From: an uncultured Actinomycetes bacterium
GTDB lineage: Bacteria; Actinomycetota; Thermoleophilia; UBA2241
DNA: 64,000 nucleotides
Assembly (NCBI GenBank): GCA_963725665.1
Contig: CAVRZA010000006.1
Location: 224,001 to 288,000, forward strand
Reading direction: 5' to 3'
The notes below the pieces were generated by a model. The model was not told where the DNA came from and made no database searches. It saw nothing but the letters and a program-made list of their open reading frames with translations. The translations under genes and the position numbers were made by a program. Shown here one piece after another: positions 7,344 to 63,836 of the stretch (position 1 is the first letter of the stretch; every line of letters starts with the position of its first letter).

Positions 7344-10300
7344 TTGACGGACCACGGGCGCGGCGATCACTCCCGAGCGGTCGAGGACCGGGAGCACGAC
7401 GCTTGCGGCGTCGGCTTCGTAGCCTCCGCAAGCGGCCCGGTCGATCACGGCCTCGTCGATCTCGCGCTGACCGCGATCGAGCGCCAGGAGCACCGGGGAG
7501 CACTGGGCGCCGACGGCGAATCGGGCGACGGCGCCGGCATCCTGACCGCCGTGCCTTGGCAGCTACTCGAGAGAGAGCTCGCGTCGGCTGGCGCGCGCCT
7601 GGCGCCGAGGGAGTCGCTCGCCGTCGGCATGCTCTTCCTGCCCCGCGACGAAACCAAACGCCGCCTCGCTCGACAGCTCGTGGAGAAGGTCCTCACCGAT
7701 GAGGCCTTCACAGTGACCTGCTGGCGGACGGTGCCGGTGCGACCGGAGGCGCTGGGGCCGCTGGCCCGGCGCCACCGGCCGCACATCGAGCAGATCATCG
7801 TCTCGTCGCCGCACTTGCGCGGCGAGCCGATGGAGCGCAGCCTGCTCCTCGCCAGACGCGGCATAGGCAGAGCGCTGCAGCGGCAGTCCGTCGTACGGCG
7901 GTTCGACGACCTCTACGTCTGCTCGCTGTCGTCGCGCACGATCGTCTACAAAGGCATGGTGCGCGGCGGCGGTCTGGGCGACTTCTACGCAGACCTGCGC
8001 GACCCCGCGTTTCTCACGCGGTTCGCCGTCTTCCACCGCCGTTTCAGCACCAACACCCTGCCGAAGTGGAGCCTGGCGCAGCCGATGCGTCTCCTGGCCC
8101 ACAACGGCGAGATCAACACGCTTCCCGGCAACCTCGCCTGGACAAGGGCCCGCGACGCGGAGCTCGAGCATCCCGTGTGGGGCGAGCGCGTGGCGGAGCT
8201 GCTCCCGACGGTGCACGCCGACGGCAGCGACTCGGGGAGCCTCGACAAGATGCTCGAGCTCCTCGTCCGCTCCGGGCGCGATCCGCTGGAGGCGTTGATG
8301 ATGATGATCCCCGAGGCCTACGAGGGCAGCGCGCGTCTCGCCGTCGGCCCGGCGACCGTCGACTTCTACGAGTACTTCAGCGCCGTCCAGGAAGCGTGGG
8401 ACGGACCGGCCATGGTGGCCTTCGGCGACGGGCGTGACCGTCGGCGCCTGTGTGGATCGCAACGGCCTGCGGCCGGCACGTTACGTGACCACGCACGACG
8501 GCCTGGTGCTGGTGGCCTCAGAGGCCGGCGTCAGCGACCTGGGCGACCGCGAGATCGCCGAGAAGGGACAGCTGGGCCCGGGACAGATGCTGGCCGTCGA
8601 CCTGCAGGCAGGAAGGGTGCTCCGCGATGCGGAGATCAAGTCGCGCGTGGCTTCGCGGCGGCCCTATGGGCGCTGGCTGCGCGAGCAGCGCCTGCGCCTG
8701 CCTCACGTACCGGCGCCGCGCCGCGAGTTGCGGGCCGAGGAGCTCCTCCAGCTCCAGACAGCCTTCGGCTATACGGCGGAGGATGTCGAGGTGATCCTGC
8801 GTCCCATGGGCCTGCACGGCCGCGAACCGGTCTTCTCGATGGGAGACGACATCCCGCTGGCCGTCCTGTCGGACAAGCCGCACACCCTCTACGACTACTT
8901 CAAGGAGCGCTTCGCGCAGGTCACCAATCCGCCGATCGACCCGCTGCGGGAACGTCTCGTCATGTCGCTGGCCATGCCGGTCGGCCGGCGTGGCAACGTG
9001 CTCGACGCCTCCCCTGGACACGCGCGCGTGGCCAAGCTCGCCTCGCCGCTGCTCGACGAGACACAGCTCGAGGGACTGGCGCATTCGGGACTCGAAGTCG
9101 CCCGCCTGTCGACGCTGTTCGCCGTCTCCAGCGGGCCCTGGGGGTTGCGCGACGCCGTCGAACGGCTCTGCCGCGACGTCGTCGCGGCGGTGCGCGGCGG
9201 CGCCGAGGTCGTCATCCTCAGCGACAGGCTCGGCGAGCCTGGCGTGGAGCTGACCTACGTGCCCCCTCTTCTAGCGGTAGGCGCGGCGCACCACCGCCTG
9301 CTCGATGAAGGCTTGCGCTGCCGGGCCTCGCTCGTCGTCGACAGCGCGCAGTGCTGGAGCGTGCACCACGTGGCCTGCCTGGTATCGTACGGGGCGTCGG
9401 CGGTCTGTCCCTACCTCGCGCTCGAGACCGTGCGCCGCCTCGCCACCGACACCCTGGCCCGAGATCCGCGGCGGGAGTGGCGCGATCCCGCGGTCCCACC
9501 GGCGAAGGCCGTCGCCAACTACCGCGCCGCTCTCGAGTCGGGGCTCCTGAAGGTCCTCTCCAAGGTCGGCATCTCCCTGCTCGCCAGCTACCACGGTGCG
9601 CAGCTACAGGAGGCGGTGGGCATCGGTGACGACCTGCTGGCACTCGCCTTCGCGGGGACGACGTCGCGCGTCGGCGGTCTCAGCGTCGAGGAGCTGGCGC
9701 AAGAGACGATCTGGACGCACCAGCGCGCCTTCCCCGAGCTGACCGTCGAGAGGCTGCAGAACTACGGCTTCGTCCGCTACCGGTCGGGAGGCGAGCACCA
9801 CGTCAATACGCCCGAGGTGGCCAAGACGCTGCGCCGAGCGGTCGTGGCGAACGACGCGACCCTCTACGAGGACTACCGTCGAACGCTGGTCGACCGGCCC
9901 TGCACCACCATTCGCGACCTTCTGGAGCTCAGGAGCGAGCGCGCCCCGATCCCGCTGACGGAGGTCGAACCGGCCGAGCGGATCATGCGGCGCTTCTGCA
10001 GCGGCGGCATGTCCCTGGGCGCCCTGTCGGTCGAAGCGCACGAGACGCTGGCCATCGCCATGAACCGCCTCGGGGGAAAGGCGAACTCAGGCGAGGGCGG
10101 GGAGGATCCGGCGCGCCGAGAGCCGCTCGACGACGTCGACGAGAGCGGCCGCTCGGCGCGCCTCCCCGGGCTCAGCGGTCTGCGCAACGGGGACCGTCCG
10201 GCGACGGCCATCCGCCAAGTCGCATCGGGACGCTTCGGCGTCACGGCCGAGTACCTCGTGGCAGCCGAGCAGATCGAGATCAAGGTGGCTCAGGGCGCCA

Positions 10301-11910
10301 AGCCCGGCGAGGGCGGCCAGCTCCCCGGCGACAAGGTCACGCCGTTCATCGCGCGTCTGCGCGGCGCGACGCCAGGCACGACCCTGATCTCCCCCCCACC
10401 GCACCACGACATCTACTCCATCGAGGACCTCGCGCAGCTCATCTTCGACCTGCGCCGCGTCAACCCAGCCGCGTCGATCTGCGTCAAGCTCGCCGCCGGA
10501 CCCGGAGTGGGGACCATCGCCGCCGGGGTCGCCAAGGCCGGCGCCGACGTGATCCACATCGCCGGGCACAGCGGGGGCACGGCCGCCGCGGCGCTCAACT
10601 CGATCAAACACACGGGGATCCCCTGGGAGCTGGGGCTGACGGAGACGCACCGACAGCTTTCGCGCACCCGTCTGCGCACACGCGTCTCGCTGCGGGTCGA
10701 TGGCGACCTGCGCACGGGACGCGACGTCGTCGCCGCGGCCGCCATGGGGGCGCAGGAGTTCGCCTTCGGCTCGGTGGCGATGATGGCGGAGGGGTGCATC
10801 ATGGCCCGTGTCTGCCACACCAACGACTGCCCGGCCGGAGTGGCCACGCAGCGTGAGGATCTGCGCCGCCGGTTCGCGGCTACGCCGGAGCACGTCGTGA
10901 ACCTCTTTCGCTTTATCGCCGAGGACGTGCGCGCGCTGCTCGCCGCGCTGGGCTTCCGCTCCCTCGAGGAGCTGATCGGGCGCAGCGACCTGCTCGCAGC
11001 GCGCGCCGACCGCCGTCTCACCAAGACGGCCGCGATCGACACGAGCTGGCTGAGCGACGCCGGCGATAGCGACGATCCTTTCGCCCTCGACGCAGGCGCC
11101 TCTGCCGCCGACCCCGCGACCCCGCGTACACCCGCAGCGGCGAGTGAGCCGCAACTGGACGAGGCGATCGCCACGCACCCGCGCGTGCGCGCAGCAGTCG
11201 AGACTCACGGGCGAGCGCACCTCGTCCGGTCCGTGGCCAACACCGACCGCTCCGTGGGTGCCGGCCTCGCCGGCCGCATCGCCGCCCTCCACGGGGACCG
11301 GGGGTTCGAGGGCGATATCGCCGTCGAGCTGTCGGGCACGGCCGGTCAGAGCTTCGGCGCCTTCCTGCTTGCGGGCATGCGCTTCCGACTCGTCGGCGAT
11401 GCCAACGACTACGTCGGCAAGGGCATGGCCGGAGGCGAGATCGTCCTCGTGCCTCCGGGGGACGCCGCCTTCGACCCGTCGCGCAGCCTCATCGCCGGCA
11501 ACACCTGTCTCTACGGCGCCACGGGCGGCAGTCTCTTCGCCCACGGTCTCGTGGGGCAGCGCTTCGCGGTGCGCAACTCCGGCGCCAGCGCGGTCGTCGA
11601 GGGTGCGGGTCATCACTGCTGCGAGTACATGACCGCCGGCACCGTCGTGGTCCTCGGCGAGGTCGGCCCCAACGCGTGCGCGGGCATGACGGGAGGCCTC
11701 GCCTTCCTTCTCGACGAGGACGGCACCGCCGCTTACCGGGTCAACCTGGAGACCGTGACCTTGAGAGCCGTCGCCGGCAGTCACTTCGAGGGCGAGCTGC
11801 GCGAGCGGGTCGCGCAGCATTTGGAGCGCACGGACAGCCCACGGGCCGGGGCCGCGCTCGCGTCGTGGGATCGTTTCGTCGCTACCTGCCGCGTCGTCGT
11901 TCCTCGCTGA
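7344..11910 (+). CDS. gltB: glutamate synthase large subunit, ferredoxin-dependent type; split by a frameshift near 8430
   Basis: CGVGF amidotransferase start, HNGEIN, FAQVTNPPIDP, GGMSLGALS, QGAKPGEGGQLPG, CIMARVCHTNDC; ORFs 7344-(8430) and 8434-11910 are contiguous halves. Confidence 0.9.
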
Positions 11911-27715: not shown

Positions 27716-29464
27716 TCACGAACGCGTGGCTGACAGTGGCAATGCGCGCGCTTCAGCTCGCGTCGCTTCCGTCGCCCAGGGCTCGAGCACCACGTCGCCG
27801 GCATGCGCTACAAGCTCGCGCAGATGCGGGCCCTCGTGAGCGCGGCGTGAGAGCAACACCGGGTCGGTCACTGCGAGCGGTATCAGGCTCTGATTCACGA
27901 CCCAGGCGAACGGCTGGATGCCGGCGCGGGCCAAGTCGCCCTCGAGCTGCATCGCCTCGTGGATCGGAGTGGCCTCCGGAAGGGTGACCAGGATGACGCT
28001 AGTGAACGTCGCGTCACGCAGGCGCGGCAACAGCTTCTGAACGGCCTCGGGGCTGCCACTGGCCTTGCGTAGCACCTCGCGATGATACGCCTCGGCCGCG
28101 TCGAGGAGCAGCAGGGTGTGGCCGGTCGGCGCCGTGTCGATGACGACGAACTGCTCGCTGCCTTGAGCGACGGTCTCGGCGAAGGCCCGGAAGACCGCTA
28201 TCTCCTCCGTGCATGGTGAGCGCAGATCCTCTTCGAGCAGTGCCAGGCCTTGGGCGTCAAGACCCGGGCCGACTGAGGCGAGCACTTCCTCGCGGTAGCG
28301 CCTCGTCTCAAGTGCCGGATCGATGCGTGTCACGCGAAGCGTCTCCGGCCTCTCGCCGACCGCTTCTTCGACGTGCGCCGCGGGATCGGTCGTCGTCAGC
28401 GTGACGCTGAAGCCTCGTCGAGCCACCTCGGTCGCTATGCGAGCTGCGACAGTCGTCTTGCCGACGCCGCCTTTGCCCATCGTCATGACGACGCCCTTGC
28501 GATGAGCAGCCAGCTTCTCCACGAGGTCGGCGAGGCTGTCGCCGTGGAAGCCGTTCGAGAAGACCGCATCGGCCACGGGAGCAGCAGGAGCGTCCTTGCC
28601 CATGTTCCTCAGCGCGTCGATGCCGACGAGGTCAAAGGGCAGGAGCGGCACCTCCACGCGGGCAAGTCCGCGAAGCTGCCAAGGCATGGCCGCGAGCGCT
28701 GCCTCGCCGCGAGCCTGCATCGAGAGTGCGGTCGCATCGCTCGGGTCGGCCGCCCGGAACACCCCGTTGACGATCAGCCGGACATTGACGATCCCGAGCT
28801 GGGCCAGTTCGTCCCGCGTGCGCTCAGCCTCGCGCAGCGAGGAGCGCTCCGGTCGCGCCACCAGGACGAGGGTCGTCCGCCTTGCGTCGCGCAGCGCGGC
28901 GTTGGTCGCGGCATACAGGTGCTTCTGCGCCTCCAGTCCGACGAGCGGACCCAGACACGACGTGCCGCCCACGTTCGTCTCGATGAAGTCGGACCAGGCC
29001 GCCGGCAGCTCCAGCAGGCGCAGAGTGTGCCCGGTGGGGGCGGCGTCGAAGACCACGTAGGCGAACGCCGCGGTCGCGGCCTCGTCTCCGAGCAGCTTGG
29101 AAAACTCGTCGAAGGCGGCGATCTCTACCGTGCAGGCTCCCGAGAGCTGTTCCTCGATGCTCGCCACCGCGGCCTCCGGCAGTACGCCGCGATAGGGGCC
29201 GACCACGCGCTCACGGTAGTCGCGGGCGGCCGCCTCGGGATCGATGTTGAGGGCCGACAATCGCGGGACCCGCGGAACCTGTCTCGGCGTCCCGGAGAGT
29301 CCGACGCCGAGCACCTCGTCGAGGTTCGACGCCGGGTCGGTGCTGACCAGGAGCACACGGCTGCCGACATCAGCGAGGTCGATGGCCGTGGCGCAAGCGA
29401 TCGACGTCTTGCCGGCGCCGCCTTTGCCGGTGAAGAACAGGATCGGCGTGGGACAGTCGATCAC
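27716..29464 (-). CDS. arsA: arsenical pump-driving ATPase
   Basis: Two deviant Walker A motifs (GKGGAGKTS, GKGGVGKTT), SGACT, SCLGP, SPCTEE, DTAPTGHT. Confidence 0.95.
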   Translation of the reverse strand: MIDCPTPILFFTGKGGAGKTSIACATAIDLADVGSRVLLVSTDPASNLDEVLGVGLSGTPRQVPRVPRLSALNIDPEAAARDYRERVVGPYRGVLPEAAVASIEEQLSGACTVEIAAFDEFSKLLGDEAATAAFAYVVFDAAPTGHTLRLLELPAAWSDFIETNVGGTSCLGPLVGLEAQKHLYAATNAALRDARRTTLVLVARPERSSLREAERTRDELAQLGIVNVRLIVNGVFRAADPSDATALSMQARGEAALAAMPWQLRGLARVEVPLLPFDLVGIDALRNMGKDAPAAPVADAVFSNGFHGDSLADLVEKLAAHRKGVVMTMGKGGVGKTTVAARIATEVARRGFSVTLTTTDPAAHVEEAVGERPETLRVTRIDPALETRRYREEVLASVGPGLDAQGLALLEEDLRSPCTEEIAVFRAFAETVAQGSEQFVVIDTAPTGHTLLLLDAAEAYHREVLRKASGSPEAVQKLLPRLRDATFTSVILVTLPEATPIHEAMQLEGDLARAGIQPFAWVVNQSLIPLAVTDPVLLSRRAHEGPHLRELVAHAGDVVLEPWATEATRAEARALPLSATRS

Positions 29465-29480: not shown

Positions 29481-30116
29481 TCAGCAGCATCCGCCGGCCT
29501 TCGCCTCTGGCTGTGCCCCGCCGCAACAAGAGCTGGCCGCAGTCGCCGACGCCTGCGGCGCTTCGGCCACGGCCTCGTCGGCGTCGCCTTCGGACTTCAG
29601 GTAGCGATCGGCGAGATTGAGGATCGACTGAGCCGGCGTGTCCTTGACTCCTCGAGCGGTCGTGACCGCACATGCCATGTCCTCGCGCGAGACGCCCAGC
29701 TTCCGCGCGGCGGCGTAGTGGAACTTGAAGCAGGGCTCGCAGTTGGAGGCGATTGCAGCACCGATGGCCACGAGCTCGGCGACCGCATCAGTGAAGAGAC
29801 TCGCGGCGGGTGCTCCGACGCCAGCCCAGACGGCGAGTTCGTCGCGCGTTGGGTAGATGCCGCGGCTCTTGACGTCGCCGTCGACCTGCACCAGTGGCAG
29901 CGCCGCTTCGCCGGCATCCTCGAGGGCGCCTTTCGCGGCCGCGTTCTCGGCGAACGCGCGCGGCTCCTGGGCGAGGTTGAAGCGCTCGACCGAGACCCCC
30001 TGGTTCTTCAGCCAGTCGAGGTCGGCGGCAAAGCGCACCAGCTGCGGGTCGACCGAAGGCCCGCAGACTCCCGTTGAGCAGCACATGGCAGGGTCGAACA
30101 CTTGCACGAGCGTCAC
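29481..30116 (-). CDS. arsD: arsenite metallochaperone ArsD fused to a CMD/AhpD-like domain
   Basis: DPAMCCSTGVCGP N-terminus; C-terminal ELVAIGAAIASNCEPC..H; CC tails. Confidence 0.9.
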   Translation of the reverse strand: MTLVQVFDPAMCCSTGVCGPSVDPQLVRFAADLDWLKNQGVSVERFNLAQEPRAFAENAAAKGALEDAGEAALPLVQVDGDVKSRGIYPTRDELAVWAGVGAPAASLFTDAVAELVAIGAAIASNCEPCFKFHYAAARKLGVSREDMACAVTTARGVKDTPAQSILNLADRYLKSEGDADEAVAEAPQASATAASSCCGGAQPEAKAGGCC

Positions 30117-30145
30117 GACGACCTCCTCGTCTTGATGGAGAGCAA

Positions 30146-30190
30146 TTTATATAAAACTAGCTTGACCATAAACAGAAGTCAATGTAGCCT
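30146..30190. promoter_or_regulatory. overlapping divergent sigma70-type promoters with an inverted-repeat operator
   Basis: + strand TTGACC(30162)-17-TAGCCT(30185); - strand TTGACT(30182)-17-TAGTTT(30159); IR TTGAC-N11-GTCAA at 30162-30182. Confidence 0.7.
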
Positions 30191-30238
30191 CAACGGTAGG
30201 GATTCTGACAGGCACGCGCTTCGAGGAGGAGTCACTCA

Positions 30239-31355
30239 ATGGCCGAAGGCACGATCAAACGACTCTCGTTCCTCGACCGGTACCTCACCGCCTGGATCTT
30301 CCTGGCGATGGCGATCGGCGTGCTTCTGGGCTGGGCTTTCCCGGGAGTGCCTGACTTCATCAACCAGTTCCAGGTCGGCACGACCAACATCCCCATCGCC
30401 ATCGGCCTGATCCTGATGATGTATCCGCCGCTGGCCAAGGTGAAGTACGAGGAGCTGGGCGACGTCTTTCGCAACTACAAGATGCTCGGCCTGTCGCTCG
30501 TGCAGAACTGGGTGATCGGCCCGATCCTGATGTTCGTCCTGGCCATCGTCTTCCTGCCCGACTACCCGGAGTACATGGTCGGGCTGATCATGATCGGCCT
30601 GGCGCGCTGCATCGCCATGGTGATCGTCTGGAACGAGCTGGCCCACGGCGACACCGAGTACGCCGCCGGCCTGGTGGCCTTCAACAGCGTCTTCCAGGTG
30701 CTCTTCTACAGCGTCTACGCCTGGGTCTTCATCACCGTGCTGCCGCCGCTGTTCGGCCTCCACGGCGTCGCCGTCGACGTCAGCATCGGGCAGATCGCCA
30801 AGAGCGTCTTCATCTACCTCGGCATCCCGTTCATCGCCGGCATGCTCACGCGCTATCTGCTGACTCAAATACAAGGGCCGCGAGTGGTACGAGCAGAAGT
30901 TCATCCCGCGCATCAGCCCGATCACCCTGATCGCGCTGCTGTTCACGATCGTCGTCATGTTCAGCCTCAAGGGCGAGCTCATCGTGCAGCTCCCCCTCGA
31001 CGTGGTGCGCATCGCCATCCCGCTGCTCATCTACTTCGTCGTCATGTTCCTCGTGAGCTTCTTGATGGGGCGCAAGATCGGCGCCGACTACTCGAAGACG
31101 GCCACGCTCTCGTTCACCGCCGCCAGCAACAACTTCGAACTGGCCATCGCCGTAGCCGTGGCCGTGTTCGGCATCAACTCGGGCGTCGCCTTCGCGGCCG
31201 TCATCGGGCCGCTGGTCGAGGTGCCGGTGATGATCGGACTGGTCAACGTGGCCCTGTGGATGGGCCGCAAGTATTGGGGCATGACCGACGCCTCCGTGCC
31301 GGCGGCGGTGGCCGCCGGCGTCGACGAGGTCGCCTGCGACCCACCGAGGAGCTGA
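30239..31355 (+). CDS. acr3: ACR3 family arsenite efflux transporter; frameshift near 30870
   Basis: [53 protein letters not shown] spread across two frames. Confidence 0.93.
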
Positions 31356-31356
31356 C

Positions 31357-31743
31357 ATGAAGATCGCGAAAGACCCCGCAGAAGCCGGCAGCATGGTCGA
31401 CTTCGTCCCATTCTTCAAGGCATTCTGCAACTCGACGCGCGCGCAGATCATCGAGTTCCTGCTCGGCGGCGAGCGCTGCGTCTGCGAGATGACCGGGCCG
31501 CTCGACCAGAGTCAGCCGCTGGTCTCGCACCACCTTGCCCTACTGCGCGAAGCAGGGCTAGTGCACATGCGCAACGAGGGCGCGCGGACCTACTATTCCA
31601 TCGACTGGAACCGCTTCGACGGCGATCTCAAGGGCTTCCTCGAGTACGTCGAACGCCTGCGCAGCGCTCCGCCGGACCTCGACAGGACCGAGAGCGCCTG
31701 CGCGACCGCCGCGAAGAAGCCGGCGCAGCGCAACGCCTCGTGA
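31357..31743 (+). CDS. arsR: ArsR family arsenic-responsive repressor
   Basis: [19 protein letters not shown]...[15 protein letters not shown]. Confidence 0.9.
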
Positions 31744-33035
31744 CGCCAGGAGAAGGGCGCGCCATGGACGACGAACGGATCCGCCGGCGCGAAGCCGGCG
31801 AGGAACTGCCCGCGGGACAGAGCTGCTGTCGTCCATCGCCGCAGCCTGGCGGCTCGTGTTGCAGTAGCGCTGTCGAGTCCGCACTCTCTGACCAGCGGAG
31901 TGCGTGTTGTGATGCATCAACGCAGGAGGCGGAGCCGGAGCGCCGGCAAGGTTTCTGTTGCGGCGCCCCGTCGGTCCCCCCCGCCGACTATCCCTATGGC
32001 CCCGCCGCCTACGTCACCGGTACGGTGGAGACGCCGGTCGACGCAGTCCCACGGGTGTCCCGTGTCATCACGCGCGCCGACCGCATGGGCGCCTGGCGCG
32101 TGCGCTGGGGAATCGGCCGCGGCGACTACCGCGTCAAGCCCGGCCTCTACGCCGTGGGAGAGCCAGTGGCGACCTCCCCCGTGCTCGTGACCGCAAACTA
32201 CAAGCTGACGTTCGACCAGGTGCGCTCTTCGCTCGACGAGCTCGACGCCTGGCTCGTGGTCGTTGACACCCGCGGAATCAACGTCTGGTGTGCGGCAGGG
32301 AAGGGCACGTTCTGCGCCGATGAGGTTGCCCGCGTGGTTCGCGAGACACGCCTGACTGAGATCGTCAGCCACCGGCGCCTGGTTCTGCCGCAGCTCTCGG
32401 CGCCCGGAGTGGCAGCCCACCTGGTCAAGGAAGCTTGTGGCTTTCGCGTGTCCTTCGGACCGGTGCGCGCTGCCGACCTGCCCGCGTTCATCACCGCCGG
32501 CATGAAGGCCGACGCCGAGATGCGCAGGGTGACCTTCGACGTGCGCGAGCGCGCCGTGCTCACGCCCGTCGAGCTTGCCGTCGCCTGGGATCGCCGCATG
32601 TTGCTGGCCTACGGCGGCATTCTGGCGGCCTCGGCGATCGGTCGCGACGGGGTCTCGCTGCGTCGCTCCCTGCGCAGCGGGGCGCCAGTGATCGGCGCCG
32701 CATGGCTCGCCCTGCTGGCCGGCGGCGCCGTGACGCCGCTGGCGCTGCCTTGGTTGCCCGGCCGCGCCTTCTCGCTGAAGGGCGCCGTGGCCGGAGGACT
32801 GCTGGCAGCTGCTGCCACAGCGACGTTCCGAAAGCGTCTCTCTCCCGCCGCCAAGCTCGCTCTTCTTGCGGGCGTCCCGGCGGTCTCCTCGTATGCCGCC
32901 ATGAACTTCACCGGCACCTCGCCGATTACCTCGCCCTCCGGCGTGGAGCTTGAGATGCGCAAGGCGCTACCTTTACAGGGCGCGGCATCCGTGGTGGCGA
33001 TCGGCGCTTGGCTGGCCAGCAGAATGGGAAGGTGA
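31740..33035 (+). CDS. hgcA: mercury methylation corrinoid protein HgcA
   Basis: ANYKLTFD, GINVWCAAGKG cap helix, PQLSAPGVAAH, GPVRA, C-terminal TM helices, MNFTG.S..TS.SGV..EM; start is 31740 (GTG) or 31764 (ATG). Confidence 0.95.
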   Translation: MTPGEGRAMDDERIRRREAGEELPAGQSCCRPSPQPGGSCCSSAVESALSDQRSACCDASTQEAEPERRQGFCCGAPSVPPADYPYGPAAYVTGTVETPVDAVPRVSRVITRADRMGAWRVRWGIGRGDYRVKPGLYAVGEPVATSPVLVTANYKLTFDQVRSSLDELDAWLVVVDTRGINVWCAAGKGTFCADEVARVVRETRLTEIVSHRRLVLPQLSAPGVAAHLVKEACGFRVSFGPVRAADLPAFITAGMKADAEMRRVTFDVRERAVLTPVELAVAWDRRMLLAYGGILAASAIGRDGVSLRRSLRSGAPVIGAAWLALLAGGAVTPLALPWLPGRAFSLKGAVAGGLLAAAATATFRKRLSPAAKLALLAGVPAVSSYAAMNFTGTSPITSPSGVELEMRKALPLQGAASVVAIGAWLASRMGR

Positions 33036-33040
33036 GGGCG

Positions 33041-33317
33041 ATGTCCGAGTTGCGCTACATCGACGACGCCGTGACTTTGCAGCTCGACCCCACCCGCTGC
33101 AACGGCTGCGGGCTGTGCGTCGCCGTCTGCCCGCGAGGCGTCTTTGCCATCGCCGATGGCCGCGCCACGCTCGTGGACCGCGGCGCCTGCATCGAGTGCG
33201 GCGCCTGCGCCCTCAACTGCGCTGCCCGGGGCCATCGGTGTCGAGCCCGGCGTCGGCTGCGCGCAGGCGATCATCAACGGGTGGCTGACCGGTCGCGAGC
33301 CAAGCTGCGACTGTTAG
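33041..33317 (+). CDS. hgcB: mercury methylation ferredoxin HgcB; apparent +1 frameshift near 33226
   Basis: CNGCGLCVAVCP and CIECGACALNC; the corrected frame continues GAIGVEPGVGCAQAIINGWLTGREPSCDC*. Confidence 0.9.
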
Positions 33318-33644
33318 ACGCCACGCTCGCAGTCCTCGCCGCTGCCGTATTGCTTGACTCTGATGACTCGTCCCGTCTCTCTCAGTCCGTGCCCTGAGGC
33401 TACGGGAGATCGGACTGTTGCCGTGTCGGTCTCCGCGCGTGCGTGGGGTGAGCGGATTCGGGGTGGGCCATGAACGAAGAGTCGAAGTGCACGGACCTCG
33501 GGTGTGGTTTCAGCCCCGAGATCCGCGACGACGGCCGATGAGAGCAGCGCAGGTTCCGACACCTCTTTCGGAGCAAGATTCGGCGGGCGGCCGCGCTGAC
33601 CGCGGAGAGGCTCAGGTCGGGCGCGACCCAGTGGACTGTGGCTG

Positions 33645-33752
33645 GGAGCTGTAGAGGACGCCGTGGGCTTCCTCGATAGGGATTCGAGGACTGGACGCCG
33701 CTTCGATAGGGTCGCGCGTCTGGTCGAAGGGTTCGAGACACCCTTCGGTCTC
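33645..33752 (+). pseudogene. C-terminal fragment of a DarG-like macrodomain antitoxin
   Basis: GAVEDAVGFL...RFDRVARLVEGFETPFGL matches the remembered DarG C-terminal motif. Confidence 0.55.
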
Positions 33753-33794: not shown

Positions 33795-34310
33795 TCAGAC
33801 GATCTCGACCTCGACGGAAGTCACCGGAGATTCGCGCACGGTGCACGCCACGGGTGAATGAGCGTCGCCCCATGTGGCGAGTGCGCGCAAGTCGTCGGGT
33901 GCCACGTTGTCTGCCCCGATCCTGACTCGTATGCGCATCGTGGTGAATGCCGCCGAGACGCCCTCATCTAGACCGAGCAGGCCGCGTTGATCTTGCTCGC
34001 TCTCGACGGTGGTCTCAAGCGTCGTCAGGTGGACGCCAATCCGTGCCGCGCGCATGGCGATGACGGTGGCTGTGCAAGAAGCGATTGCTCCACGGAGCAA
34101 CCACCCCGGGGCCGGCGCGCTTGCCGCACCGCCCAGCGCCGCCGGCATGTCGGTGAAGGCGATCTCACCCGTCGGGCCGGTCACTTCGAATCGAAGCTCC
34201 TCCACTAGGCGTGCTGTTGCGGGAGTGCCCTTCGTGTGCGCCTTCTCCGGGTCGGCGACGAATACGTCGCTGACCTTCTGCAGCGCATCGCTGATGCTTG
34301 TGGTGCTCAT
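33795..34310 (-). CDS. OsmC family protein
   Basis: DMPAALGG...P.PG.LL..AIASC...HSPV. Confidence 0.88.
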   Translation of the reverse strand: MSTTSISDALQKVSDVFVADPEKAHTKGTPATARLVEELRFEVTGPTGEIAFTDMPAALGGAASAPAPGWLLRGAIASCTATVIAMRAARIGVHLTTLETTVESEQDQRGLLGLDEGVSAAFTTMRIRVRIGADNVAPDDLRALATWGDAHSPVACTVRESPVTSVEVEIV

Positions 34311-34437
34311 GTCATCTCCTTGAGGTGGGCGAACCCCGGACTCGCCGGCCGATGTTCGGTTCTCGTCTCTCTCTTGTGCTGGCCGACGGGCACTTTACGC
34401 AAACCGTAAGGAGGAAACCTCGGCGCTGTCATCCGAC

Positions 34438-34788
34438 TCAGAAGACGAGCACCTTCTCCGCCGAGCGCGTGCGCTGGGCAAGCTCGTCCATCGAGCTGCG
34501 CCGCGCCCCGCTCATGGTCTCATCTTCGCCCATGCCGCGAGCGTCCATGCACGTGCCGCAAAGCAGCACCTCGCCCTTGCGCGCCAGGGGCTTGAGCATG
34601 CGCTCGAGGTTGTAGTACCCATCCGGCGTCTGCTGGCCCGTCTTCGCGCACACCACCGCATCGCCCATGAGAAAGACGGTGATCTCGGCCTCGGGCTCCG
34701 GCCTCTGCAGGTTCATCGCCAGGCGCAGAGCGCTGTAGCTGCGCTCCGTGCCGTACGCCGCGTCGTTAAGGACGAAAAGGTAGTTCAC
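34438..34788 (-). CDS. DsrE/YchN family protein
   Basis: YGTERSY.ALRLA, GQQTPDGYYNLERML, CGTCMDARG. Confidence 0.92.
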   Translation of the reverse strand: MNYLFVLNDAAYGTERSYSALRLAMNLQRPEPEAEITVFLMGDAVVCAKTGQQTPDGYYNLERMLKPLARKGEVLLCGTCMDARGMGEDETMSGARRSSMDELAQRTRSAEKVLVF

Positions 34789-34799
34789 GCGCCCTCCTT

Positions 34800-35327
34800 T
34801 CAACCGCCTTGGGAGGCTTCCACGCGGGTCACGAGCGGCATCGGGTTGCGGATGCAGTAGACGCCCGGGCAGCGCTCGTCGGCGCGCGACTTGAGGTTGT
34901 CGAGGACCTCCGGCGAGGCGTCCGCGACCGCCTCAAGCGTCCAGGTGATCTGCTCGACGGGCGGGCGTTCGCTGATACCCAAGGCGCGCGACATGTCGAC
35001 CACGGTCGTGATCCGACCGTGCAGGGCCTTCAGCTCGACGCCCTCACGGGCGGCCTCGATGGCGAAGGTCATGGCGTAGCAGGCCAGGCCTCCCCAGAGG
35101 CAGTAGGCGAGCGGGTTCGGCGCTGCGCCGCTGCCTCCTAAGGCGGCAGGAAAGTCGCAGAGGAACTCGACCTCCCCCTTGGGATAGGGAATCGTGCCGC
35201 GGAACTGTGGTCCGCCCGTACCGGCGTTCCACTCTCCCCTGAGGTCGACTGGCTGCAGTACGGCGCTCGGGTCCTGACGGCCCTTGTCCGCCGTCTGCTC
35301 GAGGGCCTCGACATCGACGTTGTGCAT
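34800..35327 (-). CDS. OsmC family protein
   Basis: DFPAALGGSG.APNP..Y.L.G..AC, ADERCP. Confidence 0.85.
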   Translation of the reverse strand: MHNVDVEALEQTADKGRQDPSAVLQPVDLRGEWNAGTGGPQFRGTIPYPKGEVEFLCDFPAALGGSGAAPNPLAYCLWGGLACYAMTFAIEAAREGVELKALHGRITTVVDMSRALGISERPPVEQITWTLEAVADASPEVLDNLKSRADERCPGVYCIRNPMPLVTRVEASQGG

Positions 35328-35528
35328 GGTTCCTCCTTCGGCGAAGAGCACCAATCATGTCTCGGGGCAACTGGCGAGACAACTGTTGATCAGACCGGCG
35401 TGGGCGCGCGGTCGAGCGCCTAACACCAGCCCCGACACTAGTGACGCGAAGAGAACCGGAGGGGAGCACAGGTCTCGCGGGCGACGCGGTGGTCGCCGCT
35501 AGGCGGCGGGCAGTGGCACTTGGTCGCC

Positions 35529-36185
35529 CTAGTGGTCATCCGAGCAGTCGTCGCACCGGCGCCCGGTCCTCGCCGCCTCCAGGGCCTCGTTGGCCTCGCC
35601 CCTGATCCACCAGATCATCGCCAGGCCGGCGAGTGGGTCGGCCCACCACCAGCCGAAAGCACGGTTCAGCAGCAGGCCGAAGAGCAGAACGGCCGCCATG
35701 TAGATGCAGACCAGGGAGCAGGCCGCATCGCCGCGCAGGGCCGGACTGTCCAGGCGCCCGGCAAGGCCGAGCCTCCAGCGCCAGAGCACCGGCATGACGA
35801 TCAGCGCCGCCATCGCGAGGACGATACCCACGGTCGACGCCTCCGGCTCGCTGCGGGTGAGAAGGCTCCACGCGGAGGAGACGACGATGTAGCCGATGAG
35901 GCCATACAGGCCCCAGCCGACCAGCCGGGAGGCCTGCCTCTCGCGCCCGTCGAGCTCCTCGTCGGTCGCCCGGTCTGTGTGGAGGAGCAGCTGCCGCAGG
36001 ACGATTAGAGACGTGAAGATCTCGATGCCGCTATCGACGCCGAACGTGGTCAGGGCCACCGAGCGGGCGGCGATGCCGGCGACAAGGGCGACGACGAGCT
36101 CGATGACCATCCAGCCGGCGGTGAGGGTCTGGGCCAAACGGGCCTGGCGGATCAGCTCGATCTTCGGCTGGGCGATGGTACTCAC
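35529..36185 (-). CDS. cation efflux (CDF-like, TM-only) transporter
   Basis: SVAL..FG.DS.IE, SPALRGDA....C.Y, GWWWADP. Confidence 0.85.
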   Translation of the reverse strand: MSTIAQPKIELIRQARLAQTLTAGWMVIELVVALVAGIAARSVALTTFGVDSGIEIFTSLIVLRQLLLHTDRATDEELDGRERQASRLVGWGLYGLIGYIVVSSAWSLLTRSEPEASTVGIVLAMAALIVMPVLWRWRLGLAGRLDSPALRGDAACSLVCIYMAAVLLFGLLLNRAFGWWWADPLAGLAMIWWIRGEANEALEAARTGRRCDDCSDDH

Positions 36186-45786: not shown

Positions 45787-47020
45787 ATGCAGGGCCACAT
45801 CCGCCGCCGAGGACCACACAGCTACGAGTACATCGTCGATGTGGGCACCGCAGCGGCGCAGCGCTGCCAGAGCTGCGGCAAGCGGTTCTGGGTCGAGCGT
45901 AAGCCCAAGGAGAGCTGTCCCTCCTGCGGCGGCAGGCTCATTGAGACCGAGGAGCGCCGCCGCGAGACCAAGGCCGGCTTTGCCACGCGCAAGGAGTGCC
46001 AGGCGGCCATGGCCAAGGTGCTGGTGGCGGTCGAGGAGAGAAGCTACGTCGTGCCCACCAAGGTCACCGTGCGCGAGTTCCTGCAGAAGGAGTGGCTGCC
46101 GGCCATCCGCTCCACGATCAGGCCGACGACCTACCGCTCCTACGTGCAGCACGTCGAGTGTCACATCGTGCCCCACATCGGCAGCGTGAAGCTGGAGAAG
46201 CTCAGCGGAGCGACGATCAACGCCCTCTACGCCAAGCTCGCCCAGAGCGGCAAGACGAACGGCACGAAGCGGCCTCTCGGCGCTCTCCATCCGCCACGTG
46301 CACGCCGTCCTGCACCGGGCACTCAAGGACGCCGTCAGATGGGGTCGGCTCTCGCGCAACCCCATCGAGGCCGCCGACCCACCCAGAGTGAATGGCTCTG
46401 GTCACGAGATGAGGACCTGGAGCGCCGAGCAGCTGGCGGCCTTCCTTGCGGCAACCAAAGACGATCGCCTGCACGCCCTCTGGCACCTGCTCGCCCTGAC
46501 CGGCCTGAGAAGGGGCGAGGCCCTGGCGCTCACCTGGGACGACGTCGACCTCGAGGCAGGATCGCTCTCGGTCAGACGGGCGCTGATCCCCAACGGCAGA
46601 GAGGTGGTCGTCTGCGAGCCCAAGACGGCTCGCGGACGCAGAGTGGTCGCCTTGGACCCGCAGACGATCGAGGTGCTCAAGGGCCAGGCCGCCCGTCAGC
46701 TCGTGGAGCAGGCGAAGGCCAAGAGCTGGACCGACACGGGCTTGATCTTCACGCGCGAGGACGGCGAGGCGCTGCACCCCGAGGTCGTCAGTCGCTTCTT
46801 CCGTCAGGCGGTCAAGAGAGCCGCACTGCCGACGATCCGCCTGCACGACCTGCGCCACACCCACGCCACCCTCGCCCTGCGCGCCGGCATCCATCCAAAG
46901 GTGGTCTCCGAGCGCCTCGGGCACGCCACCGTCTCCATCACCCTCGACACCTACTCGCACGCCATCCCGGCGATGCAGGAAGAGGCCGCGACGAGGATCG
47001 CCGAGCTCGTGTTCGGCTAG
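45787..47020 (+). CDS. tyrosine integrase with a Zn-ribbon insertion in the arm-binding domain; frameshift near 46270
   Basis: CQSC...CPSC, TGLRRGE, PKT, HDLRH, LGH...TLDTY. Confidence 0.9.
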
Positions 47021-50193: not shown

Positions 50194-51783
50194 TCACTCA
50201 GGCGGCAGCTCGCCGAACGTGACACTCAGGTCGATGCCCTGCTTGGCACCGCGCCAGCGCCAGACGTAGTACCAGATCATGCCGGCCGCCCACGCCGCCG
50301 CGAAGACGAAGAGGTTCTTGCCCGTGACGTCGCGCGACGTCGGGTCGATGAACGAGAAGTAGAGGAACGTGATGATGAACATCAGGTACAGGACCCCGCC
50401 GATGGTGACCAGCGGGATGCCGGCGATCCTCCACGAGTGGTAAGGCGAGGCCTCCCAGATGCCGCGCACTTTCTTGCGGTACGGGAAGAACACCGCCGAG
50501 ATGCCGGTCACGAGGAACACCGAGATGAACTGCATGCCGCCGCCGATAAGGCCGCTCAGGCTGCTGGTGAGCCAGAGCACGTACACGGCCACGCCGACTG
50601 CGAAGATGACCATCGCCACGGTCAGGTTCTTGATCGGCGAGGCGTGCGTCGGACTCACGTCGGTGAACCACTTCGGCCCCATGCGGTCGAGACCCCAGGC
50701 AAGCCACGCGCGCCCGATGATGAGGATGGCGATCGTGATCTCGAGCCAGATGACGGCGATGAAGGCGAGGAGGATCGACCAGGCCACGATGCCGCTCTGC
50801 GCCGCTCGCGATCCACGACAGGGTCAGGACATCGGGCGAGTAGGGCGCCGTGTAGCCCGGGACTCCGGCCCCGAAGCTGGCCTGCGCGCTCGCGCTGAGG
50901 AAGTTGAAGTCGACCATCCGGTAGAGCCCGGTGGCCAGCAGCAGGCCGAGCACGATCGGCACCCAGACGGCGAGTACGTTGCCGGTGAGCAGCGTCTTGT
51001 CGGGCCGCTTGACCTCGCCGCTCAGGTAGGCGATGGCGTAGTTGTAGACGAATAGCGCGTAGACGCCACTGAAGGCCCCGATCGTGTCGTGCCAGTTCCA
51101 CGTGGTCGGCAGTCGCCGGCCGCCTTGATGAAGGCGTTATAGTCGAGCGACTTGTACTGGGTGGCGATGGCGTTCCAGTGCGCGATGAAGTCGCCCTTGC
51201 TCGTCATCCAAATAGCGGCGATGAGCACGATGCAGCCGCCGATGGCGGGGATCAGCATGATCTTCTGGATGATCGCGTAGCTCCTCATGCTGAAGGCGAC
51301 CGAGAGGTAGCCGATGACGGTGATCATCACGCCGAGGATGAACAGCCCCTGCTTCGATGCGACCCAGTCGGTGAACCCCGCCCAGCCCATGTACTGTCCG
51401 AAGAGCTGAAGAGCAGGGACGCCCAACCAGGTGGCGATGAACCAGTTCCAGTAGAAGATGGCGAGGATGTTGGTAAAGACGGCCCCGAGCGCGACCGCCG
51501 GGTGCAGGATGCGTGAGTTGTAGACGTACTCACCGCCGGCACGCGGCATCGACCCGCTTAGGATGCCCCAGACGAGCGGTGCGCCGAGACCGGCCGTGAG
51601 CGCACCGATGATGATGGCGATGGTGAGGTTGCCGCCGGGGAACAGCGACAGGGCGATGCCCACCATCAGCCAGAGCGTGGCGATCGGCTGGCAGGTCATG
51701 AGCCCGGCGCCGAACGCATCCCACATGTCCAGGCCACGCACGAGGCCACTCGCTTTTCGTGCGAAGGCAAGTTCTTCAGGCAT
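50194..51783 (-). CDS. APC family amino acid/amine permease; two frameshifts (~51110 and ~50790)
   Basis: FARKASGLVR, MPRAGGEYVYNSR, C-terminal GIDL...FGELPPE. Confidence 0.85.
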
Positions 51784-60639: not shown

Positions 60640-60747
60640 GGTCGGGTTGTCCCCCTCGCGAGGGTGACGTAACGAAAGACGCAACCACCTTCGCCGCGGC
60701 CGCCGGCGAACCCTGCGGGGTCGCGATGCGGGGGGCGCGGGACGCGC

Positions 60748-62316
60748 TTACTGACGCGGCACGACCTGCGTCCCCTGAGGCGTGTCGCGCACCTCGAAGC
60801 CGGCCGCCTGGATCTCGTCGCGCAGGGCGTCGGCCCGGCTCCAGTTCTTCATCGCCCGCTCGTGGTCGCGCAGCGCGGCAGCGTAGGTCGCGTCTCCTCG
60901 CACGAGCGCGCCGGTGTAGAGCAGTTCGATCTCGTCCCAGGCGCCCTCGGCGGCGAGATCCTGCGCCTGCGGCGCGACTGTTTCGCCGCCGTTTGGCCCA
61001 GTCAGCGTGGCGGAGCCAGCCGCCTCCGCGGTGCGGGTCGTGTGGGTTCCGCCGCCCGTGACGTCGTCGGGCAGGCCGATGAGCAGCACGCCGAGCCGCT
61101 CCTCTAGGAGCGTGCGGGCCTCGCTGAGCGCCACGACGTCGAGCGGCTCGAGACCCTCGTCGACGGCGGTCAGGTGGCGGTACGCTCCGGCGACGAGAGC
61201 GAAGAGGGAGCCGATGGCGCCCGCGGTGTTGAGGTCGTCGTCCATGTACTCGTCGAACTCCGCCCGCGCGCGCGCCAACGTCTCGCGGAGGTGCGCGACC
61301 TCGCCCCTCCGACGCGCCTTGTTGGCCGTCGCCAGTCTGAAGGTGACGTCGCGCAGGGCCCCGACGAGACGCTCGTACGACGCCTTTGCTTCGTCGAGCT
61401 TCTCCACGGAGAACTCCAGTGGGCTGCGGTAGTGCGTCGTTAGGAAGTACGTCATGACGACCGCGGCGGAGTAGCGGTCGAGGCTCTCGCGCAGCAGCGT
61501 GATGTTGCCCACCGACTTGGCCATCTTCTCTCCCTCGGTGCGCAGCATCCCGTTGTGCATCCAGACGCGCGCGAACGGCAGACCGGCCGCCTCGGACTGG
61601 GCGATCTCGTTCTCGTGGTGGGGGAAGATGAGGTCGCGGCCACCGCCGTGGATGTCGAAGCCGGCCCCGAGGTAGCGCAGCCCCATCGCCGAGCACTCGA
61701 TGTGCCAGCCGGGACGGCCCTCTCCCCAGGGGCTTGCCCACGAGGGCTCGCCCGGCTTGGCCGCCTTCCAGACGGCGAAGTCGAGAGGGTCCTCCTTGCC
61801 CGGCTCGACACCGACGCGGGCACCCTCTTCCAGCTCCTCGATGCGCTGTCTCGAGAGCTTGCCGTACTGCGGGAAGCTGCGCACGCGGAAGTACACGCTT
61901 CCCTGTGCCTCGTAGGCGTGGCCGCCGGCGATCAGCTGGCAGCAAAGGTCGATGATCTCGGGGATGGTCTCGGTGGCCCGCGGCTCGATGTCGGGCCGCG
62001 GCAGGCCGAGCCGGTCGGTGTCGTCGAGGTACGCCTGCGTGAACTCGACCGCCACCTCAGACGCGGGGCGTCCCTCGGCGTTGGCCTTGGTGATGATCTT
62101 GTCGTCGACGTCGGTGATGTTCTCGACCAGCGTCACCTCGTAGCCGCGCTGGCGCAGCCAGCTGCGCAGCACGGCGAAGACCACATAGGGGCGCGCGTTG
62201 CCCACGTGAACGAGGTTGTAGACGGTGGGTCCGCAGGCGTAGATGCCGACCTTGCCGGGGTCGCGAGGGACGAAGTCCTCTTTGCGCTGCGTGAGCGAGT
62301 TGAACAACCGGATCAC
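60748..62316 (-). CDS. cysS: cysteine--tRNA ligase
   Basis: [40 protein letters not shown]. Confidence 0.97.
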
Positions 62317-63836
62317 GTCTCTCCTCCCTCTGGCGCGCCCGGTATCCGGGGAGATGGTGGGCTGGTGGCAGGGTCGTCGGTCGCCGCAGAATCAACAGGC
62401 CGGGAATCCACCCCCTCCGCGCCGGCCGCCACGAGCGCACGGTCGAGACGGCGCAGTGCCTCGGCCCGGTCGAGCGCGGCGAGGACGAAGGGAAGCTCGG
62501 GGCCGTGCTCGCGTCCGGTCAGGGCGATGCGCAGTGGCCGCAAGAGTCCACGCGCGTTGAGCCCCAGCTCGGGACCGAGGGCCCGGTAGTCGGCGAGGAG
62601 GCTGCGCGCGGCGGCGGGCGACACCCAGTCGCCCGCCGCCGCGCGCAGCCCCGCGAAACGGCCCAGCGCCGTCGCCGCCGCCGCGACCTCGCCGAGCAGC
62701 TCAGGCGGCGGCGGCGGCGCGTCGAGCACCTCCGCAGCCAGGCGCGCGGCATCCCCGTAGCGGACCAGCGACGGCTTGAACGCCTCGGCCAGGGCGCGAG
62801 CCGCAGGCTCGGCTACGCCGGCCAGCAGCCTAGCGGCGAAAAGGCGCTCGTGCTCGGCCTCGTCGAGGGCCAGGACGTGTTCGTGATCGAGCCAGTCGAG
62901 CTTGCCGGCGTCGAAGATCGCGGGGCTCCCCGACAGCGCGGCAAGGTCGAACTCGGCGATCAGCTCCCCCATGCCGAGGACCTCGCGCTCACCGTGTGAC
63001 CAGGAGAGCAGGGCGAGGTAGTTGGTCACGGCTTGCGGCAGGTATCCGAGCTCGCGGAACTCGCCCACCGCCGTCGCCCCGTGGCGCTTGGAGAGCTTCG
63101 CGCCGTCGGGGCCCAGGATGAGCGAGTGATGCGCGTAGCGCGGCTGCGGAGCATCGAGGGCACGCAGCAACAGGACCTGACGCGCGGTGTTCGTCAAGTG
63201 GTCCTCGCCACGGATGACGTGACTTACGCGCATCTCGGCGTCGTCGACGGCGGCGGCGAAGTTGTAGCCGGCGCGTCCATCGGAGCGCAGGATGATGAAA
63301 TCGCCGATGACGTCGCTGGTGAAGGCGACGCGGCCGCGGATGAGGTCTTCGACGACGATCTCGCCCTCGGGGACGGCGAAGCGCAGCGCCGCCGGCTCGC
63401 CGGCGGCGAGCCGGCGCCCGACCTCCCCGCCCGACAGCTCGTGGCAGCGCCGGTCGTACTTCGGCATGAGGCCGGCGGCCAGTCGCTCCTCGCGCAGCGA
63501 GTCGAGGCGCTCCTGGGAGCAGAAGCAGCGGTAGGCGATGCCTCGCTCGAGCAAGTCGAGCGCGGCGGCCTGGTAGAGCCCTTGACGTTCGCTCTGGCGG
63601 TAGGGCCCTGTCGGGCCGCCGCGCGCGGGCCCCTCGTCCCACTGCAGACCCAGCCAGGCCAGGTCCTCGAGGATGCCGGCCTCGTAACGGGCTTCAGAGC
63701 GCGCCACATCGGTGTCTTCGACGCGCACGATGAAGCTCCCGCCGTGACGACGGGCGAAGAGGAAGTTGTAGAGCGCCGTGCGCGCCGAGCCGATGTGCAG
63801 AGAACCCGTCGGGCTCGGCGCGAAGCGCACTCTCAC
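62313..63836 (-). CDS. gltX: glutamate--tRNA ligase
   Basis: RFAPSPTG.LHIG, RVEDTD, HVIRGEDH, KLSKR. Confidence 0.96.
   Translation of the reverse strand: MRVRFAPSPTGSLHIGSARTALYNFLFARRHGGSFIVRVEDTDVARSEARYEAGILEDLAWLGLQWDEGPARGGPTGPYRQSERQGLYQAAALDLLERGIAYRCFCSQERLDSLREERLAAGLMPKYDRRCHELSGGEVGRRLAAGEPAALRFAVPEGEIVVEDLIRGRVAFTSDVIGDFIILRSDGRAGYNFAAAVDDAEMRVSHVIRGEDHLTNTARQVLLLRALDAPQPRYAHHSLILGPDGAKLSKRHGATAVGEFRELGYLPQAVTNYLALLSWSHGEREVLGMGELIAEFDLAALSGSPAIFDAGKLDWLDHEHVLALDEAEHERLFAARLLAGVAEPAARALAEAFKPSLVRYGDAARLAAEVLDAPPPPPELLGEVAAAATALGRFAGLRAAAGDWVSPAAARSLLADYRALGPELGLNARGLLRPLRIALTGREHGPELPFVLAALDRAEALRRLDRALVAAGAEGVDSRPVDSAATDDPATSPPSPRIPGAPEGGET

Follow-up and report, generated by a model that had tools for sequence, protein, structure and literature searches.

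It is an open question why microbes possess hgcA and hgcB, the genes for mercury methylation, and the linkage of these genes to arsenic genes is among the few leads available. The question raised by the present locus is whether hgcA and hgcB have been built into an arsenic-resistance operon in an actinobacterium, and whether two of the genes concerned, acr3 and hgcB, are truly broken in the cell or only in the assembly. The locus lies in a window of 64,000 nucleotides (the whole stretch of DNA that was analysed, corresponding to positions 224,001 to 288,000 of contig CAVRZA010000006.1 in assembly GCA_963725665.1, from an uncultured Actinomycetes bacterium), in which acr3, arsR, hgcA and hgcB follow one another head to tail on the plus strand. 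Taken as a whole, the explanation that these four genes form a genuine arsenic-resistance-type operon, controlled by As(III) and methylating Hg(II), and that its breaks are artefactual, is judged probable. It is built upon the observed gene identities, their spacing, their order in relatives, a signature of assembly artefacts and the lineage of the host, from which the function of promoter and operator, induction by arsenite, transcription as one unit and the activity of the enzymes are predicted. An earlier note, made from the sequence alone, had proposed such an operon, and the gene coordinates that it gave all proved correct when compared with the list of open reading frames (ORFs) and the sequence. 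The features of the locus are as follows.

27716-29464, minus strand: arsA, a two-domain anion-transporting ATPase (PF02374 ArsA_ATPase, 287.7 bits), divergent from the acr3 operon
29481-30116, minus strand: arsD, a metallochaperone joined to a CMD/AhpD-like domain and ending in a tail rich in CC (PF06953, PF02627 and NF033727)
30162-30190, plus strand: promoter-like element TTGACC-N17-TAGCCT (conservation and reading by eye)
30239-31355, plus strand: acr3, arsenite efflux permease, split as assembled (TIGR00832 in two frames)
31357-31743, plus strand: arsR, ArsR/SmtB repressor with GERCVCEM (PF01022, NF033788 and alignment)
31740 (GTG) or 31764 (ATG) to 33035, plus strand: hgcA, corrinoid protein (NF040863, hydropathy and alignment)
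33041-33317, plus strand: hgcB, dicluster ferredoxin, split as assembled (NF040864 in two frames and DNA alignment)
33329-33345, plus strand: weak terminator-like hairpin, 12 nucleotides past the hgcB stop (pattern scan)

Gene identities and conservation of the cluster

The four genes are separated by gaps of 1, -4 (an overlap) and 5 nucleotides: the TGA stop of acr3 ends at 31355 and the ATG of arsR is at 31357; a GTG at 31740 overlaps the arsR stop (31741-31743) as GTGA; and the ATG of hgcB, at 33041, lies 5 nucleotides past the end of the hgcA stop (33035). All four are thus on the same strand with no space for internal promoters or terminators, and this spacing bears out the description of the locus, in the earlier note, as one tightly packed co-directional cluster. 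An alternative start for hgcA is the ATG at 31764, which has AGGAGAAGG in front of it; in relatives, an ATG stands where the window has GTG 31740, and overlaps the arsR stop.

The identity of HgcA is established by the NCBIfam equivalog model NF040863, which it matches with a score of 410.1 bits where the cut-off is 275, over profile positions 1-323 of 325 and with no internal stop; the earlier note had suggested a check with another profile hidden Markov model, that of Hg-MATE. The cap-helix motif NVWCAAGKG, which that note had pointed out together with a transmembrane domain, begins at nucleotide 32280 (residue 173 when counted from ATG 31764), is invariant in 10 of 10 aligned HgcA proteins of the clade, and matches the pattern N(V/I)WCA(A/G)GK with its cobalt-ligand cysteine. 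The transmembrane domain of HgcA has been described as five helices (PMC7305189); in the window protein, four clear hydrophobic stretches are seen across residues 302-419 of the C-terminal domain with a 19-residue hydropathy window, and the model covers the whole of that domain.

Ahead of this core, residues 1-100 of HgcA (31764-32060) form an N-terminal extension of about 100 amino acids that contains four Cys-Cys pairs, and the CCGAP motif that immediately precedes the core does not vary among the 10 clade proteins aligned. HgcA N-termini rich in such pairs also occur in other phyla, as in the four or five CCPP repeats of Desulfuromonadales loci. Neither the literature searches nor the available text of two papers on HgcAB (PMC11588087, PMC7305189) makes mention of this cysteine-rich region.

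HgcB displays both of its CxxCxxCxxxC motifs for 4Fe-4S clusters, CNGCGLCVAVCP and CIECGACALNC, the second of which is followed in this clade by V-P and not by P. The cysteine that stands about 12 residues after the second motif (GVGCAQAI) and the PSCDC tail are found only in the +1 frame from approximately 33225, so that the two motifs and the C-D-C tail attributed to this protein in the earlier note are all present, the last of them in a shifted frame. The match to NF040864 is correspondingly divided between profile positions 1-56 (74.0 bits, 33041-33220) and 59-87 (32.2 bits, in the +1 frame), and only a rough sum of the two would pass the cut-off of 99.

Two further matches to the HgcA model or protein were observed. 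In the same genome, a second and weak match (72 bits, below the cut-off) lies within a 475-residue frame at G000:C2:407925-408296 on the minus strand; this frame most likely encodes the acetyl-CoA pathway's corrinoid iron-sulfur protein, and many relatives have comparable matches. A database protein of 511 residues (P0074), which is 79% identical to the window HgcA and carries Fer4 domains and CdhD, represents either a fusion of HgcA with HgcB or a call that reads through from one gene into the next within the clade. We know of no mercury-methylation assay of any member of this actinobacterial clade.

The regulator matches PF01022 (HTH_5) at 54.6 bits and NF033788 at 79.6 bits, both above their cut-offs. 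Its GERCVCEM segment places a CVC pair at the alpha-3 position, aligned to the CxC column of all ArsR matches (26 ArsR ORFs), and the pair is conserved in all six clade ArsRs that precede hgcA. The ArsR of E. coli R773 binds As(III) through Cys32, Cys34 and Cys37, the first two of which suffice, and the ArsR2 of Pseudodesulfovibrio mercurii ND132 has a distinct four-cysteine site, Cys47/49/86/88 (bioRxiv 10.1101/2022.10.17.512643). The window protein lacks the third R773 cysteine (CVCEMT), and it also lacks the second pair of cysteines, the CYC located on the strand that precedes helix 4, where the window reads RTYYS and the delta-proteobacterial hgcA-linked ArsRs read TCYC; the latter, with CxC plus TCYC, agree with the published description of the ND132 site. 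The window ArsR is 25-38% identical to these delta-type proteins and 61% identical to its closest relative not linked to hgc genes, which belongs to a simple acr3-arsR pair of genome G001 (locus L019). Judged by its cysteines and its alignment, the repressor in front of hgcAB here is of the ordinary type found in ars operons and not of the ND132 type; since the type differs, the comparison suggests that the link of hgcAB to control by ArsR arose more than once.

The arrangement is not peculiar to this genome. A family search covered 41 genomes (its own and 40 relatives), and found hgcA above the model cut-off in six, its own included, with a seventh (G001) carrying the gene in two pieces. The order acr3-arsR-hgcA-hgcB on one strand was found in genomes G019 (L014) and G011 (L017), and in loci L020, L021 and L023 (three of 80 loci from the genome_contigs set), and the cluster arrangement is conserved in five other genomes. 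In G019 all four genes have intact frames; in G011 acr3, arsR and hgcA do so, and the tail of hgcB is masked by Ns. The overlap of arsR and hgcA is kept in L014, L017, L023 and L024, the last of which has acr3 on the opposite strand followed by arsR-hgcA, and in L020 approximately 300 nucleotides lie between arsR and the hgcA ORF. Other members of the clade are arranged differently: in G001, hgcAB is followed by acr3 and arsR as a pair of their own; the gene upstream in G005 is divergent, and its N-terminus resembles low-molecular-weight phosphatase/ArsC (assigned by eye); and in two further relatives (G024/L022 and G006/L025) no ars gene adjoins hgcA. Of the 80 loci, at least 16 have hgcA immediately preceded, on its own strand, by an ORF of the ArsR family, a lower bound given that several loci start close to hgcA, and eight contain an Acr3 ORF, including two Bacillota loci with the order arsR-hgcA-hgcB-acr3.

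On the minus strand, upstream of the operon, the arsD product matches PF06953 over residues 1-105 and the CMD family PF02627 over residues 110-162, with NF033727 at 127.9 bits; the fusion (29481-30116) ends in the CC-rich tail SSCCGG...GGCC, and its CMD part is weakly similar to the AhpD domain of ArsM-AhpD selenoproteins. The search for ArsA gave one match in the 86 loci. Downstream of hgcB, also on the minus strand (33795-36185), are OsmC-like, DsrE-like, OsmC-like and cation-efflux (CDF) genes, which together with the ars genes look like a stress and metal neighbourhood. A tRNA search for an island boundary found no tRNAs within the window.

Frame breaks, contig and host

Both acr3 and hgcB are broken in the assembled sequence. 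The TIGR00832 match to Acr3 falls into two parts, the first covering profile positions 1-202 with 280.5 bits (30239-30877) and the second, read in the +1 frame, covering positions 201-327 with 188.7 bits (30873-31355), the cut-off being 282.8; as assembled there is no full-length match in one frame, which three relatives have. Comparison with these straight-reading relatives places the extra base within approximately 30857-30867. The earlier note had read hgcB as interrupted by a single base, and that break is indeed real in the assembly, but this second frameshift, in acr3, had been overlooked. In hgcB the extra base is a C at approximately 33222, where the window has AAC TGC GCTG CCC GGG, four relatives have AAC TGC GTG CCx GGx, and one has TTG (from a DNA alignment with six relatives, two of whose loci have runs of Ns in or after the region and so say nothing about the tail). 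Selenocysteine and a non-standard genetic code were considered as explanations and set aside, because the breaks are changes of frame and not in-frame stops.

If these frameshifts were real, acr3 and hgcB would be pseudogenes in a decaying operon, with no pumping of arsenite by this Acr3 and no methylation of mercury. Such decay is quite unlikely. A codon-usage model trained on 499 long ORFs of the genome was used in a seven-state Viterbi scan of all contigs, in which candidates were defined as same-strand frame switches with no nearby stop in the upstream frame; the scan was home-made and was run with no control genome. It returned 578 candidates in 3.13 Mb of coding sequence, in 413 of which the old frame remains open for more than 100 nucleotides further, and 345 of those 413 (84%) are +1 switches, similarly on both strands. 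Since natural gene boundaries should lack such a bias, it points to systematic single-base insertions. The scan itself caught the acr3 break (at 30863) and did not catch that of hgcB, because the gene is too short to be called coding. Within the window, the large gltB gene is split at 8429/8431 (with GATase_2 profile positions 1-338 and 339-420 falling in successive pieces) and a phage-type integrase at 46269/46271, both confirmed by Pfam; an IS110 transposase (58089/58091) and an amino-acid permease (in three pieces, at 50800 and 51111) appear to be split as well, with Pfam matching one piece of each. The two breaks in the operon are of this same +1 single-base type, and the sequence past each of them is as conserved as that before it: in the shifted frame, the HgcB tail is 77-90% identical to relatives (five loci) and the C-terminal part of Acr3 is 84-90% identical (three loci).

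The evidence from public read data is weak: the best share of the stretch's words in any run was 0.16, and none reached half. Contigs from runs X1, X2 and X4 that span 30859/30860 all lack one base there, and two X1 contigs lack base 33222; their sources are related strains and relatives of this organism, respectively. The earlier note had asked for a read check near 33226; at 33222 these X1 contigs lack the base and X2 displays no deletion.

Several observations count on the side of decay and against the reading of the breaks as artefacts. In addition to both genes being broken as assembled, the contigs that lack the extra bases belong to relatives approximately 88-98% identical and not to this strain, and no read of this very strain without the extra bases was found in runs X1, X2 and X4; run X2 has a depth of 13.7 at 33222 with no deletion, its coverage ending before 33237 (this coverage may derive from ferredoxin motifs of other organisms); and some candidates from the scan are ordinary gene boundaries, such as those at 60657 and 62364 in the window. 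The family also provides examples in which hgcA itself is disrupted: in G005 (L016) a TGA stands at the tryptophan codon of the cap helix (GINI*CAAGKG), which is either a pseudogene or a sequence error, and in G001 hgcA lies in two frames. Real decay thus occurs in the family, or at least appears to, and the presence of the gene above the cut-off in 6 of 41 genomes is patchy.

Weighing the +1 single-base character of the breaks, the genome-wide bias and the conservation of the shifted frames, the breaks in acr3 and hgcB are very probably insertion errors of an error-rich long-read assembly and not gene decay. The earlier note had feared that a real inactivating frameshift in hgcB might undo its proposal; the genome-wide artefact signature makes this unlikely. 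As a practical consequence of the assembly indels, hgcB and acr3 of this record are prone to being miscalled as pseudogenes, and pseudogene calls anywhere in this genome require the support of reads.

A different kind of error would be a chimeric contig, in which ars genes and hgcAB from different organisms had been joined by the assembler or the binner. The metagenome-assembled genome (MAG) comprises 12 contigs and 3.73 Mb, at 97.5% completeness, and its estimated contamination of 5.04% is the figure that would favour such an error. Against it, the locus lies deep (254 kb) inside a 578-kb contig, and the G+C content of the window is uniform (0.64-0.72); the same gene order is found in five other genomes; short-read-like contigs of 151 nucleotides from X2 match 30130-30332, 31378-31528 and 31602-31752 with no differences, the last of them crossing the junction of arsR and hgcA; and the cysteinyl-tRNA synthetase gene cysS in the same window (60760-62364) assigns it to the same family, its product being 68-69% identical to those of four same-family genomes and 80% identical over a partial match in the fifth; the identities of HgcA to these five genomes range from 65 to 82%. 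A chimera is scarcely credible on this evidence. GltB was tried and rejected as a lineage marker, with four of the five same-family genomes having only partial paralogues, 33-38% identical, and one having none, and CysS was used instead. The large glutamate synthase gene (7377-11835, plus strand) has no close counterpart in those five genomes.

The relationships of HgcA itself give a concordant picture. Among one-genome-per-species contigs, its best matches are from MAGs labelled Thermoleophilia (81, 77, 72 and 65%), Actinomycetes (75%) and Actinomycetota (66%); next comes Coriobacteriia at 58%, and below it are numerous matches in Desulfobacterota and other phyla, at 38-55%. In a large database, protein P0097, which its source labels as the HgcA from a MAG of Thermoleophilia, is 68% identical. 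In a quick maximum-likelihood tree (IQ-TREE) of 82 rows, from which L016, L055, L058, L067 and L069 were dropped for missing or truncated cores, the window HgcA falls within an actinobacterial clade of 12 rows with full support in the Shimodaira-Hasegawa-like approximate likelihood ratio test (SH-aLRT 100) and a branch of 0.5. By these markers the host, an uncultured actinobacterium of soil or sediment, is Thermoleophilia-like (Actinomycetota). The earlier note had asked for a phylogeny and for checks of host taxonomy and contig integrity; its placement of the host outside the Desulfobacterota is supported.

Proposed control of the cluster and its possible significance

The divergent spacer between arsD and acr3 is 122 nucleotides in length (30117-30238) and A+T-rich, and contains TTGACC at 30162-30167, followed after 17 nucleotides by TAGCCT. 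The block TTGACCATAAA upstream of acr3 is present in six of six aligned sequences (the window and five relatives). Because a consensus sigma-70 scan of 29900-33700 returned no sites, the identification of a promoter-like element here rests upon that conservation and upon reading by eye. Two results speak against arsenite-controlled transcription from this spacer: the empty sigma-70 scan, and the finding of no pairs of inverted repeats of 8 nucleotides or more in the region between arsD and acr3. The coverage of RNA run X17 comprises only conserved stretches of acr3 and comes from other organisms, and so does not bear on expression here. At the other end of the cluster, the hairpin pattern scan gave two sites where 1.2 were expected from shuffled sequences, and is not significant on its own.

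Arsenite-inducible co-transcription of acr3-arsR-hgcA-hgcB may reasonably be inferred. In the mechanism proposed, an ArsR dimer would repress the conserved promoter in the 122-nucleotide intergenic region, and would be released from it upon binding of As(III) at the CVC site; a single transcript would then provide the Acr3 pump, ArsR, HgcA and HgcB, with translation of arsR and hgcA presumably coupled through the GTGA overlap. HgcA, as a membrane corrinoid protein, and HgcB, as a ferredoxin with two [4Fe-4S] clusters and a cysteine tail, would act on Hg(II) in the way that the known methylators do. In the system that has been studied, cob(I)alamin on HgcA is methylated by S-adenosylmethionine (SAM), the methyl group then passing to Hg(II), and HgcB supplies electrons, with cysteines that may shuttle mercury (PMC11588087, PMC7305189).

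The cluster might be intact and hgcAB might still escape arsenite, either through a promoter of its own or through an ArsR that answers to a different effector, such as S-adenosylhomocysteine (SAH) or another metal, the proximity to ars genes being a coincidence of a metal island. The hgcAB-linked ArsR2 of ND132 responds to SAH besides arsenic (bioRxiv 10.1101/2022.10.17.512643), and SAM is the methyl donor of HgcAB (PMC11588087); in addition, the two relatives that have neither acr3 nor arsR upstream of hgcA (G024/L022 and G006/L025), and the spacing of approximately 300 nucleotides in L020, are compatible with independent control. This alternative is unlikely: the 4-nucleotide overlap, kept in four other loci, leaves no space for a promoter; the CVC pair suffices for As(III) in R773 ArsR (bioRxiv 10.1101/2022.10.17.512643); and the closest ArsR outside hgc loci (61% identical) sits in the plain acr3-arsR pair of L019. 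Control of the whole operon by arsenite is plausible and is the reading that is retained here.

A bolder proposal is that, in this clade, hgcAB belong structurally to an ars operon of the canonical kind that senses As(III), having been recruited independently of the ArsR2-hgcAB of Desulfobacterota and selected for the handling of metalloids. The independent recruitment would follow from the different subgroup to which ArsR belongs; the operon would have been kept across several genera, and the conserved N-terminal CC pairs of HgcA (with the invariant CCGAP) recall those with which ArsD binds As(III). The proposal is speculative and rather unlikely. If it were true, HgcAB might, for example, methylate As(III) in a corrinoid- and SAM-dependent manner or pass it on, and the methylation of mercury would be a side reaction.

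Apart from such proposals, the locus provides a very tight example of hgcAB positioned behind a complete acr3-arsR pair whose repressor is a classical arsenite sensor. The arrangement is conserved in a clade of Actinomycetota, uncultured and frequent in metagenomes of wetlands and sediments, and the locus represents a clean construct for probing both arsenite-dependent expression and any action of HgcAB on arsenic.

Comparison with known systems

The nearest published precedent in terms of regulation is arsR2-hgcA-hgcB of Pseudodesulfovibrio mercurii ND132, in which transcription of hgcAB depends on ArsR and responds to arsenic and to SAH (Gionfriddo et al., bioRxiv 10.1101/2022.10.17.512643). 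The two loci are alike in having an ArsR-family gene directly upstream of hgcAB on the same strand, and in ND132 arsR2 is co-transcribed with hgcAB in an arsenic-responsive manner. They differ in that the ND132 locus, as that preprint states, has no other ars gene, whereas here a complete acr3 precedes arsR and arsD-arsA lie divergently; and in that ND132 ArsR2 has its four-cysteine site, whereas the window ArsR has the CVC pair only.

In terms of host and neighbourhood, the closest precedent is that of McDaniel et al. 2020 (PMC7438021), who reported 17 hgcA-positive Actinobacteria, including four Thermoleophilia of a new order (GTDB UBA2241), and described hgcAB flanked by acr3, arsC, arsM and arsR in diverse phyla; further papers (PMC10349881 and PMC11984097) restate and extend these findings of hgcA-positive Thermoleophilia and of hgcAB flanked by ars genes. 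The present locus shares with theirs the class of the host and the ars-flanked position of hgcAB, and differs from what the available text of PMC7438021 describes in that the order is kept in six genomes of the clade, with genes that overlap or nearly do so; the order acr3-arsR-hgcA-hgcB in Thermoleophilia may already be drawn in the figures or supplements of that paper. The linkage to arsenic genes in a phylum other than Desulfobacterota, which the earlier note had put forward, is present here, but both of its elements were already in print (PMC7438021 and the ND132 preprint).

Classical acr3-type ars operons with an R773-type ArsR resemble the locus in possessing Acr3, a CVC in the alpha-3 region and adjoining ArsD and ArsA, and differ from it in that here hgcA and hgcB have been added after arsR and the third R773 cysteine is missing. 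Two loci of Bacillota/Clostridia (L090 and L096) have the same four gene families on one strand, but in the order arsR-hgcA-hgcB-acr3, with acr3 last, with HgcA in another clade, and with an ArsR of another subgroup (43% identical over 70 residues, and with extra C-terminal cysteines). Set against these systems, what the locus adds is a conserved and very compact form of the operon, with a classical ArsR, in Thermoleophilia, and the published picture is unchanged by it.

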